From Stylophora pistillata (taxonomy: Eukaryota): a DNA stretch of 64,000 bases. This document shows positions 667 to 64,000 of the stretch, piece after piece; positions within the stretch are counted from its first letter, which is position 1; each line of letters opens with the position of its first letter. The notes under the pieces were generated by a model, which was given only the letters and a program-made list of their open reading frames with translations, had not been told where the DNA came from and searched no databases. Made by a program: the position numbers and the translations under genes. The stretch lies in NCBI RefSeq assembly GCF_002571385.2, contig NW_019217832.1, positions 77,427 to 141,426 of the forward strand, written 5' to 3'.

Positions 667-12611
<11,945 letters not shown>

Positions 12612-22129: not shown

Positions 22130-22945
22130 AGTGCAATGAAATATATGAGGTTCATGTATTTTGAACTGCGGTATTAGATACGTATGATGCACGATCCTCG
22201 CAGTAGATAGCGATATTTAAGCAATAGCGAAAATCAGACCTGAAAAAAAATCAGGCCTGTATGGGATTCGAACCACTGACCCCTGCGATACTAGTGCAGC
22301 GCTCTACCAATTGAGCTAACAAGCCAACTGGGAGCAGGCCGTTAAGTTGATTCGTAATAAACCCGTGAAAGTGATAAATNNNNNNNNNNNNNNNNNNNNN
22401 NNNNNNNNNNNNNNNNNNNNNNNNNNNNNNNNNNNNNNNNNNNNNNNNNNNNNNNNNNNNNNNNNNNNNNNNNNNNNNNNNNNNNNNNNNNNNNNNATTT
22501 ATCACTTTCACGGGTTTATTACGAATCAACTTAACGGCCTGCTCCCAGTTGGCTTGTTAGCTCAATTGGTAGAGCGCTGCACTAGTATCGCAGGGGTCAG
22601 TGGTTCGAATCCCATACAGGCCTGATTTTTTTTCAGGTCTGATTTTCGCTATTGCTTAAATATCGCTATCTACTGCGAGGATCGTGCATCATACGTATCT
22701 AATACCGCAGTTCAAAATATATGAACCTCATATATTTCATTGTACTGATTTATCACTTTCACGGGTTTATTACGAATGAACTTAACGGCCTGCTACCAGT
22801 TGGCTTGTTAGCTCAATTGGTAAGAGCGCTGCACTAGTATCGCAGAGGTCAGTGGTTCGAATCCCGTACAGGCCTGATTTTTTTCAGGTCTGATTTTCGC
22901 TATTGCTTAAACAGCCCTATCTACTGCGAGGATCGTGCCTCATAC
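22130..22945. repeat. tRNA-derived ~250-bp repeat units: one copy on - (22130-22379), an N-gap (22380-22496), then two tandem copies on + (22497-22745, 22747-22945)
   Basis: Each unit has GGCTTGTTAGCTCAATTGGTAGAGC...GGTTCGAATCCC..ACAGGCC (A and B boxes, AGT in the anticodon-like loop) followed by a T-run. The copies on either side of the gap are near-perfect reverse complements. Confidence 0.85.
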
Positions 22946-59853: not shown

Positions 59854-60894
59854 CGCCTTTTTTGAGCGTCATCAAAGGAAACTCAAAGTTATCACAACAG
59901 CCAATGAGTTCAAAGAGAAACACCTTAAGAAAACCAATGAGAACCCGTAGAAAACGCATGTAACCGGCTCAAAGAGCGGGAAAACGCGCCTTACCAAGTG
60001 GCAGAGTCGTTTTAGTTTTACATCTGATTGGAGGTGACAAAAGGCTTATTTTGGACCAATAATAAAGCGCAGTAAGGCAGAGCTAGAAAACCTCTATAAT
60101 ACCTTGGCCAAATCGAGTATCTGAGGATAAAAAGTTTTGTTTTTGTATGTCTAGCATCGAAGCAAATGCGAGATTCGAACGGACAAAAACAAAGTTTTAT
60201 ATCCCTGGGTACTCAAAATGGCCGTTGAGTAAGAGGTCTCGATGCAGATTACTCGATGCAGTCCTAACTCACGCACATAAATTAGCTAAAGATTGCTCTT
60301 TGGTACACAAAACTTTGAATGTCATGATCAAAGAATGACTTTCCTGTTACTGGCCGAGAGATTAAACAATGAAGCACGAACAGAGATTGGGGCGGAAAAT
60401 TCAAAGAAAAGGTGAGGCGAAGGAATTGTGAGAGTCTTGATTAAGTTGTATTCACATCAAGAAAAAATCTTTTCTTTTATTCGACTCCTCTTACAGGGAT
60501 CAACTCACACGAACAGAAACCATATTGTTAATGAACAAATATTTTTTTTTTACAAGAGAGTTGAACTTCGCTCCCCTTCCTCTTCTGTGGGTTTTCCAAA
60601 TCAATCTGCCAGTACTTGATTGACAAACCCGTAAAAATCGATTATTGGTTACTAAGTTATGAATCAAGAAACACAACACTGTTCAAAGGAACAAAAGACC
60701 GCTGAACAAAACAAACGATACACAGTCTATGAGCCTCACTCTCGGAGTGCTGTGTGGCGCGCTAAGATCAATCTTTTTTTGGCTGTTTTTTTTTTTACTT
60801 GCACGACAGACTTCGCCGAAAAGGAGGATCAGCTCATAGTCTGGTAATTTGTTTACACCAACTAAGTTGAAACTGCCACCGTAAAGAGTTAAAA

Positions 60895-60929
60895 AGCTGA
60901 CGTTTCGAGCGTTAGCCCTTCGTCAGAGC
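60895..60929 (-). ncRNA. Minimal type I hammerhead ribozyme motif within a Penelope-like repeat fragment (~60870-61008)
   Basis: Minus strand GCT-CTGACGA-A-GGGC-TAAC-GCTC-GAAA-CG-TC-AGC: full catalytic core, 4-bp stem II, 3-bp stem I and vestigial stem III. Predicted cleavage lies between 60899 and 60898. Confidence 0.75.
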
Positions 60930-61109
60930 GAAACATTTGCTCAAGTTACCTTGTTACCCCCACCGACGCAGCACGACAGTTTCTTTGGAAACTTACCCAC
61001 TTTGTTCATAGTCTAGTAAACAACAGTCAAATCTAACTATGAAACACCTTTACAAATTAAAATCCCAAAATTACCAACTTGAACTAAAATTGCTTCAAAT
61101 TTGATTTTG

Positions 61110-64000
61110 TTAGCAACTCCACATTAGAGATTTGTGTCTTGTGTGAAATCTTGGTGACCCAGGGCTTGGCCAGCTGGAAAAAAAAGAGTCACATCAGTAC
61201 TACGCTGATAAAATGCCTTGATGGCAGGTAGAGGTTGATGTGACAAAACCCAAAAGAGAGGGGGTGGGAAAGAAAGGGAACAGTGGGGGATGAGGGTAGA
61301 AAAAAGAGGGGGAGGGATAGGAAGGAATGATTCTGGAAAACAGCAAAGGAGGACTAGGTGGGAGGCTAGGAGTAAGAGTTTAACAGAGGAGGGGAATAAT
61401 GCAAAGGGAGAAATGGAGGAATGGGTAAGAGAAGGAAAGAGAAAGAAAGATGAGGAAAGAGAAGGAAAGAGAAGGATGGGCAGGAAGAAAGATACTAGAG
61501 ACGGAGACAAAAGGAGAATGCTGGAGCAAAGGGGAGATGAGAAATGCCGTAGGGAGGAGTGGATAGTAGAAAGGATAGAGGGAGTAGGCAAGGATTGTGG
61601 GAGAGAAAGGGAGGTCAGGACAAAGAGAAAAATCAAGCAATGCAAAGAGGATCAGGGTTAGGGAGGGAGGCGACAAAATAGAAGTGGTAAGGAGGGGATG
61701 GTGAAAAGAATGAGGAGGTATGAGAAAGCATGGGAGGGGAATGACTGAGGGTGGTGACAAGAAACAGAAGGGAAGCAGGAATAGGCACGGAGGGTGGTTA
61801 AAGGGAGGCATGGGGCTATGAAAGAAGAAATGGTAATTAATTAGACAAAAAGAAAGAAAAAAACAATGCTACCTTTGTTGTGCTGCCTCAGAATAAGACA
61901 TAACATGTTCCTTCCATTCTTGGATACAAGGATATTTCACAGAATCAATCTTGGTCTGACCGATGGCAATTAACACATCAAGGTCAAGTTTACTGGGCTG
62001 CAAACTAAAGCAAAGTCATGCTGTCAGAATAGACTATTGTAAGTCAGAGTGATGGGGATATTTGTGTCTTCATGACAGGTTCCATAATTTAAGTGTCTAT
62101 ACGGCCAACAGGGTTTTTATTGTTTTGGTATCTCTTTAACCTGTAAAAAAGCATTCTCAAAAAACAAAAAATTGATTCTGACGCCTCTTCACCCTAAAAT
62201 CGAGCTTTAAAGTTCCCGCTTCGGCCACGCCCAATGAAGTTGACCGCGTAAGGGAAGATTGGTGATGAGTGACGTCATTTCAGGAGCGTCTCGAGTGTCA
62301 TGTTGTTACTTTGCTTGACAAACGCAGTGCTTTTACAACACATCTATCGGGCATATTTATGTCGCCGAAAACTCTTTCCTTACTTAAAAAAAACAGTGAA
62401 ATGAACCCCTGGCGGGATTTGGCGTGTTACTGACTTGACGCCATGACCCATTCTGAACCTAATCTCTTTTTTGCCCCAACTCACGGTCACCTTCAATGGG
62501 TGTGGCCAAGGCGGGAAGTTTAAAGCTTGAATTCAGGGCGAAGACTCATTCAGAATCCAATTTTTAGTTAAGAATACTCTTTTACATGTTGAATACATAC
62601 CAAAACTATAAAAAAAACCCTGTTGGACGTATAGCCACTTTAAAGAACAAATTGCTTTTTGTGTCAAATGTGGTTAGAATTATCTGGCTGGCCAGTTATA
62701 AGTACTACTCAAGGTCCCAAGCAGCAAGCCTGTGCCAAGCTTTTTGTTGTTCAGTAAACACAAGAAAAACAAAAGCAGGTAAACATTGGCAGAAGCATCA
62801 TTTTGCTGGCTGCTGTGACAGCTGCCAAGAAAGGTTTGTGTAACATTTCCCACATTTATATGTATGAACAATTTGGAATAATAATGAAAAACAATGCTAA
62901 TCCAAGTGAGCTGTAATTTAAGCAGCTGTACAGAAGAAGCCTGAAAATAATTCAGGCCTCAGTGTGATTTAAACCTATGCCTCCCAGATAACTGGACTAC
63001 AAAGCACAAATGGGAAGCTGAATGCATTTTTTAGAGGGTACTTCTCTTCTTGAATCTGGAACAGCCTACTAAGCCACTTACCCCTGGATGAAAATGTTGA
63101 CGTTCATATTTTCTGAACCAGCCACATTGACAGATCTCTCTGACTTTGCATGCTCCACATTTCTTTCTCCTGGCACTTTAAAACAGCTCTGCTCCAGAAC
63201 ACTTGAAACTCTAAAATCATCATTTTTAAATCTCTGATCTTCACATGTACACCTTGTAGTCTCAATCACTTCATCTTTAAGGTAATTTTTCCTTAATTCA
63301 GCTGGAGACTGATTCACCACTAATGACTGCAAATCAGTTGAATCCAAATCCTTGGCCGGGATGTCCATTTTGTGTTTCATTAGCATCACTTTGTCTTTCT
63401 TGTCTGTTTGCTCAGTATCAGAAACATCCTCATCTTTGCTCCTCAAGACTTCACCATTATTGCTAGTTTTTTGTTCTTGTAGATTGTATAGCAGCTTTTT
63501 CTTGCACACGATATCCCCTACTACGTCTGTTTCATCTTTCTGGTCACTCAACTCAGTAGAATGGCTTCTGTTTAGGAAATCTTTGTCTGGACTTTCTGCC
63601 AATGAACCATTGAATGTGGGTAGCTTTATCTCAACTTCCTCGAGATGAAGACAAAGTGTTTCCATGCTTTTTCCCAATGTTTTCAATGAAGGCTCTAAAA
63701 GCTCATCTTTCATGACTGCATCTGGAGATGTCCTTAAAACTAGACCATTCCCATCCTTTCTGCTTGAAAATTTCTCCATGATATGCTGTCCTTTAGAATT
63801 CTCTATTTTACCTTTCACTGCAGCATCCTCCACCTCAAAATTTAATTTTTCTGGTTCCATCTTTGACTCTGGAATTTCTTTCTTGTCCAACATGGGAGAA
63901 CTGTCTTCATAATCCAACAAGTTCTTTTTATTAAAACTGGGTAAAGCACCTGCAAAGGCTGTTTCATGTTCCAAACCCCTGTCAGGCAAAATAACTCCAC
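61110..64000 (-). CDS. ANKLE2: ANKLE2 (LEM4) homolog, 3' part only. Exons >64000-63082, 62004-61873, 61173-61110
   Basis: The spliced C-terminus IFIQGLQPSKLDLDVLIAIGQTKIDSVKYPCIQEWKEHVMSYSEAAQQSWPSP resembles the ANKLE2 C-terminal domain as I recall it (F-x-x-G-x-x-PSKLD-x-DVL...P-x-x-x-x-WK...SWPSP). It is preceded by a long acidic low-complexity exon that is open to the window edge. Confidence 0.85.
61245..61830. repeat. ~590-bp purine-rich (G/A on +) low-complexity tract in the last ANKLE2 intron
   Basis: Dominated by gga/gaa/agg runs; it generates spurious ORFs on both strands. Confidence 0.85.
62089..62643. mobile_element. ~550-bp non-autonomous DNA transposon with long imperfect TIRs, TTAA-bounded (Kolobok-like by termini)
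   Basis: ttaagtgtctatacggccaacagggtttt...agctttaaagttcccgcttcggccacgccca is mirrored by tgggtgtggccaaggcgggaagtttaaagct...aaaccctgttggacgtatagccactttaa. Confidence 0.75.

Follow-up and report, generated by a model that had tools for sequence, protein, structure and literature searches.

Does the hammerhead ribozyme motif in the probable 3′ untranslated region (UTR) of a coral ANKLE2 gene cut the mRNA that carries it, or is it a passenger of the mobile element that delivered it? The locus lies in a 64,000-nucleotide stretch of the Stylophora pistillata genome (contig NW_019217832.1, positions 77,427–141,426; hereafter the window), for which an initial annotation, made by reading the DNA letters, had proposed that ANKLE2 mRNA may contain a conditional self-cleavage site activated in trans by other repeat-derived hammerhead RNAs. 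We find that the motif is very probably the terminal-repeat hammerhead of a coral Penelope-like element (PLE), brought into the likely 3′ UTR by one back-to-back insertion and retained as a passenger without useful cutting of the mRNA.

The Motif and Its Host Gene

The minus strand from 60929 to 60896 reads GCU CUGACGA A GGGC UAAC GCUC GAAA CG UC AGC (34 nt), which is composed of a 3-bp helix I, the core CUGACGA, an extra A before G10.1, and a 4-bp helix II closed by a UAAC loop and followed by GAAA; a palindromic ACGU takes the place of helix III, and the UC^ site predicts a cut between 60899 and 60898. Both core boxes of the minimal type I class (CUGANGA and GAAA-NN-UH) are present and the sequence matches the descriptor in the supplement of PMC4209133, as are the features of PLE minimal hammerheads: an extra nucleotide after position 9 and before 10.1, a G10.1–C11.1 pair, and a palindrome at 15.2–16.2. 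The letters thus bear out the intact minimal type I core that had been claimed, and the predicted cleavage position agrees with the one given earlier (60898/60899); the earlier interval of 60895..60929 is correct for 60896–60929, and its position 60895 adds one U. With up to three mismatches allowed, a 28-mer from the motif finds a single site in the window and none in 100 shuffles, so the motif is not a chance sequence. Rfam returned no hammerhead match at the gathering score across the whole window and none at E ≤ 10 within 59500–62000; this silence is a limit of the models and does not count against the motif. A loose core pattern was uninformative (14 matches in the window vs 7.3 expected), and the folding z-score of the 56-nt region, −1.37, is not significant.

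The identification of the host gene as ANKLE2 is confirmed by a LEM domain in the first exon (Pfam, E 1.3e-12) and an ankyrin repeat in the next, both in DNA neighboring the window, by the name carried by the named homologs among 80 matches, and by tblastn with a stony-coral homolog, which gives eight exon blocks, the last (61175–61113) ending SWPSPGSP...WSC and followed by TAA. ANKLE2 itself begins outside the window, about 6.8 kb past its end. As the initial annotation had it, the distance from the stop (61110) to the motif is 180 nt, neither AATAAA nor ATTAAA lies between the two, and the first AATAAA is the one listed in Table 1; a variant hexamer, AAGAAA, occurs at 60980–60985, upstream of the motif and inside arm B of the insertion described below. 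The gene convergent with ANKLE2 has a GT-AG joint, 59063–59227, that was seen in two of four RNA runs. Our literature search found no paper linking ANKLE2 with a ribozyme.

Table 1. Features of the ANKLE2 locus in window coordinates
Feature	Position	Strand	Evidence
Minimal type I hammerhead motif	60896..60929	−	Sequence; letters match the A. digitifera row, Fig. S3 of PMC4209133
Arm A, pLTR 7–104 (hammerhead and downstream part)	60843..60932	−	blastn
Arm B, pLTR 95–162, opposite orientation to arm A	60941..61008	+	blastn, 90% identical to L030
Left 9-bp direct repeat, likely target-site duplication, abuts arm A	60834..60842		Repeat search
Right 9-bp direct repeat, overlaps arm B end by 3 nt	61006..61014		Repeat search
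Last ANKLE2 exon, coding part and stop TAA (61112–61110)	61110..61173	−	tblastn, 4/4 homologs align
Penultimate ANKLE2 exon	61872..62003	−	tblastn, GT donor
Large internal ANKLE2 exon, running past window end	63081..64000	−	tblastn, neighboring DNA
First canonical AATAAA after stop, likely poly(A) signal	60476..60481	−	Hexamer list; weak hint from contig ends
Last exon of gene convergent with ANKLE2, 208-aa frame	59227–59853	+	No Pfam match

A Repeat Family and Its Parent Element

The 397.6-Mb genome contains 507 exact copies of the 30-mer of the motif (248 on the plus and 259 on the minus strand), and 8,645 sites (4,359 plus, 4,286 minus) lie within two mismatches of the 28-mer; reversed-pattern controls gave no match in either search. 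This density amounts to one near copy every 46 kb; a 64-kb stretch should contain about 1.4, so that one copy is expected in any stretch of this size and a motif in a host 3′ UTR is likewise expected. Within its family of about 8,600 copies, the ANKLE2 motif is an ordinary member. Among 30 copies chosen by their downstream motif, the perfect 34-mer is found in 4, the core is kept in 13, and the motif is present within six mismatches in 20. We considered whether genomic copies start at the cut site, as cleaved templates would, and found this idea unsupported: by eye, 28 of the 30 retain sequence upstream of the site. In the fetched loci L001–L030 (near position 1500 of each), copies that do not reach the 3′ end of the element mostly start, again by eye, at most about 10 nt upstream of the hammerhead. 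Starts just upstream of the hammerhead rather than at the cut site perhaps mark where a short transcript begins or where reverse transcription stopped at the base of the hairpin. The window also contains a decayed copy of the same pseudo-LTR (pLTR) repeat, at 71% identity, at 9590–9691.

Eleven of the 30 exact-motif loci extend upstream into the 3′ end of an element open reading frame. A reverse transcriptase (RT) fragment adjoining one copy, used as a query, gave 150 scored matches out of 836 candidates; 10 stretches were fetched in search of a full-length parent, most of them containing assembly gaps, and three have a Penelope-type frame of at least 250 aa, one of these without N. Locus L062 has an open 594-aa frame with an RVT_1 domain (E 1.6e-7; 31.7 bits against a Pfam cut-off of 29.6) followed by a GIY-YIG domain (E 4.5e-4; 20.9 bits, under the cut-off of 22.6). 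Its translation, read by eye, includes a linker with a CxxxxCxxC motif, a CxxC pair that separates the VIY box from the IYIG box, and two later histidines. Arm A of the ANKLE2 insertion matches L062 about 95 nt after this frame at 80% identity, and a hammerhead lies in the pLTR after the RT/GIY-YIG frame in both L062 and L060. Pfam searches with two short fragments, L021 and L008, were of no help. On this sequence evidence, the parent is an RT/GIY-YIG Penelope-like element with a hammerhead in its 3′ pseudo-LTR, and the putative clade label, Neptune, derives from these motifs together with the assignment in Table S1 of PMC4209133. The association of minimal type I hammerheads with Penelope elements, which the initial annotation had stated, is upheld here by this parent and by the published motif of A. 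digitifera.

A Back-to-Back Insertion

The motif lies within one arm of a back-to-back insertion of about 166 nt (Table 1), the extents of whose arms were set by comparison with 30 fetched copies. Arm A is 87% identical to the natural copy L030, with an 8-nt gap. The outer ends carry 9-bp direct repeats; as a control, 1,477 pairs of random zones were compared, and a repeat of 9 nt was reached in 30. The layout recurs elsewhere in the genome: in 13 of 30 loci (among which L009 and L018 are apparently duplicates) an opposed arm is present within 300 nt, and six of the 13 show direct repeats of 9–15 nt at the outer ends, with arms that end near repeat positions 101–105 and 155–162, like those in the window. 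Separately, we observed in seven loci (L003, L004, L006, L013, L024, L025, and L026, at about 1200–1800) back-to-back arms ending at about 91–105 and 155–162, with direct repeats of 7–15 nt outside the arms.

We read the recurring arm ends as a natural trace of priming at two sites of the element RNA. We posit that the element endonuclease would nick both strands about 9 bp apart and that each host end would then prime reverse transcription on element RNA, one near pLTR position 160, close to the 3′ end, and the other near position 103, about 57 nt upstream. Joining of the two short cDNAs would leave opposed arms between the duplicated target bases. A literature search, judged by title, found no paper on Penelope twin priming with inversion, and the ANKLE2 locus offers a tidy example of a Penelope two-arm insertion with target duplication.

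Transcription around the Insertion

The stretch is contained in 20 of the 24 sequencing runs listed, several of them labeled coral metagenome, and we analyzed the RNA contigs of four poly(A) runs from three studies. Poly(A) RNA contigs from the three studies tile both flanks of the motif and the 5′ junction of the insertion. Four contigs begin at 61175, the splice acceptor, and reach 60942–60949; three of them (777, 1,953, and 2,849 nt) continue off the genomic sequence, as spliced mRNA would. Short contigs span the junction into the motif (60905–60975, two runs listed). Downstream contigs start at 60904–60910 and end at 60457 in one run and at 60296, 60123, or 59945 in the three others. In all four runs the downstream-flank contigs extend 6–12 nt beyond the cut site, which is consistent with uncut molecules. 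No single contig bridges the cut site with 31 letters on each side in the four runs, because the assembly graph breaks inside the repeat, which is present in hundreds of contigs per poly(A) run (368–906 records, mostly on the repeat). The contigs are unstranded and carry no expression level, and contig depth is unable to rank the parts of the gene.

These unstranded contigs, broken at the repeat, suggest but do not prove that the motif is inside the ANKLE2 3′ UTR. The motif is in sense orientation to the gene, as the initial annotation had it, and the contigs tile both flanks, as a place in the UTR predicts, but they carry no strand and break at the repeat itself. No joint skipping the insertion and no empty allele was found in the four runs, so the insertion may be fixed; the assembly likewise has no second allele without it, the flank giving a single match.

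Folding and Prospects for Cleavage

For the monomer, the predicted structure is a hairpin of −12.3 kcal/mol, compared with −5.6 kcal/mol for a hammerhead-like fold with helices I and II. An active fold within one mRNA is thus not predicted, with no helix III formed and helices I and II reaching a probability of 1.7e-5. Only one helix III pair is possible, so that a second copy of the motif would be needed; without helix III and a partner, CUGACG would pair with CGUCAG across the cut site in the hairpin. In the UTR context, predicted pairing of helix I is below 0.01 and that of the inner pairs of the blocking stem is about 0.6. The double hammerhead is predicted at −9.5 kcal/mol versus −24.6 kcal/mol for two hairpins, which places a trans dimer about 15 kcal/mol above two free hairpins, and its helices are only 3, 4, and 3 bp. 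Apart from the 71% relic noted above, no partner hammerhead was found in ANKLE2 across the window and 30 kb of neighboring DNA. Given that nearest-neighbor energies omit tertiary contacts and proteins, these values argue against activity without excluding it. For a Schistosoma rather than a coral motif, the account in PMC4209133 describes no detected cleavage by a single motif and weak cleavage by covalent dimers and trimers, and its authors suggest that host factors are possibly needed in vivo.

Weighing the Readings

We favor the passenger reading because the motif has 507 exact copies and 8,645 near ones, neither set biased toward one strand, because hairpin folding is favored and the published monomer of this class is inactive, and because the parent PLE frame, the two-arm layout, and the published Neptune motif agree with it. 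Against it stand the perfection of the motif beside a diverged downstream flank (49 of 62 matches to the nearest neighbor, the fourth lowest of 31) and the rarity of the perfect 34-mer among the sampled copies; this copy was singled out by the initial annotation because it is intact. It is very unlikely, in our judgment, that ANKLE2 mRNA is conditionally self-cleaving through a double hammerhead formed by the motif with a repeat-bearing RNA or with the help of a host chaperone. Such a scheme draws on the intact core, on the ACGU palindrome, which permits a 4-bp intermolecular helix III, on the hundreds of repeat contigs per poly(A) run, which mean that partner RNAs may exist, and on the host factors proposed by the authors of PMC4209133 in 2014, but it has to contend with the short helices and the predicted energy deficit of the dimer, with the weak cleavage described in that paper for covalent dimers of the minimal class, and with the lack of a partner copy in the gene or its 30-kb surroundings. 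Copies equally abundant on both strands would also supply competing antisense partners, and the upstream sequence kept by nearly all sampled copies gives no sign of cut templates. The conditional self-cleavage site is accordingly disfavored for a motif of an 8,600-copy family with a core predicted to be sequestered, as is its activation in trans, given the cost of the dimer and the weakness of published linked dimers.

A non-catalytic effect of the insertion on ANKLE2 mRNA, through pairing with antisense copies (double-stranded RNA, editing, or decay) or through a weak poly(A) signal, is also unlikely, if somewhat less so. Repeat-mediated effects on mRNAs are known for mammalian Alu elements, the two arms are 85–97% identical to abundant copies of either orientation, and arm B carries the AAGAAA variant. 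The arms are only about 65 and 90 nt long, however, and overlap by about 10 repeat positions, which leaves no long internal duplex, and the RNA contigs show no clustering of A>G or T>C changes in them, contig depth there being dominated by other copies. The broadest proposal, that coral mRNAs with hammerhead copies form a trans-acting network in which double hammerheads cut host messages such as ANKLE2, we regard as highly improbable. Its trigger would be a rise of element transcripts or of RNAs with the repeat, heat stress being one example, upon which pairs of half-competent motifs would assemble, perhaps with a chaperone. Were trans cleavage shown, the candidate targets of the ribozyme would run to thousands of coral transcripts and amount to a new regulatory layer. 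On the preferred reading, that of a passenger, the finding itself matters little, being a known transposon motif in a host 3′ UTR; its practical value is that hammerhead matches in coral genes need a copy-number check and that Rfam misses this motif.

Other Elements near the Locus

Three near-identical tRNA-like matches occur at 22253–22875 of the window in a back-to-back layout: the plus strand carries two of them, spaced by 251 nt, and the minus strand the third. Terminal inverted repeats bound 56778–57445 and enclose a short internal frame (56950–57288), both seen by eye; this element looks like a non-autonomous DNA transposon. A 274-aa frame on the minus strand at 49571–50395 resembles a LINE reverse transcriptase in its C-terminal part. 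At about 7880–8515 of locus L033 (91878–92513 in coordinates continued from the window), a different hammerhead-like motif lies about 200 nt after a GIY-YIG-like frame, and together these probably represent another Penelope-like family.

Comparison with Known Systems

The hammerheads of the mammalian Clec2 3′ UTRs, as described in the review PMC2950038, resemble the ANKLE2 motif in that a sense-oriented hammerhead core lies in a 3′ UTR, a likely one in the case of ANKLE2; they differ in being discontinuous ribozymes that are conserved across mammals, in Clec2 homologs of several species, and that cause an 80% drop in reporter expression, whereas the ANKLE2 motif is known from its sequence. Metazoan non-LTR retrozymes, on the accounts in PMC7229834 and bioRxiv 10.64898/2026.07.22.740005, are likewise type I with an unstable helix III and kin to PLE pLTRs. 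The former reports over 6,000 type I motifs for A. millepora, of which 1,508 are canonical and all others minimal, and the latter a tendency of rare exonic retrozyme copies in Xenopus toward 3′ UTRs. Retrozymes are characterized in these sources by canonical hammerheads with loop contacts, tandem 220–240-bp units in Acropora, and efficient cleavage, whereas the ANKLE2 motif is minimal and single. We rejected assignment to this class given the single copy, the 3-bp helix I in place of a 6-bp helix with loop 1–loop 2 contacts, and the lack of a second motif in ANKLE2.

The Neptune-clade PLEs described in PMC8557442 share with the family studied here a single frame encoding RT and then GIY-YIG, a cysteine motif in the linker, two cysteines between the GIY and YIG equivalents, and a hammerhead in the pLTR. 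In the insertions described there by Craig et al. (2021), truncated arms are inverted, tails occur on one side, and target duplications vary, and the same inverted truncated arm, extension at one end, and variable target duplication are found in our family; the one-sided extension is about 55–60 nt in the window versus 30–40 bp in that description, and the window copy has no coding part. Minimal hammerheads were defined in PLE terminal repeats by Cervera and de la Peña (2014; PMC4209133), a paper that finds them across genomes, in most cases singly and derived from truncated elements, and whose Table S1 assigns the A. digitifera motif of Fig. S3 to a Neptune element. That motif also lies in the 3′ pLTR, in mostly solo copies from truncated elements, and as given in Fig. 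S3 it has the same letters as ours in helix I, core, extra A, helix II, loop 2, CG, UC, and AGC, the GAAA column being taken separately from the other motif letters. The S. pistillata copy differs from the A. digitifera element in its downstream flank and in consisting of a short fragment with two arms that lies in a host 3′ UTR, and its motif is one already published as a coral Neptune-element hammerhead.
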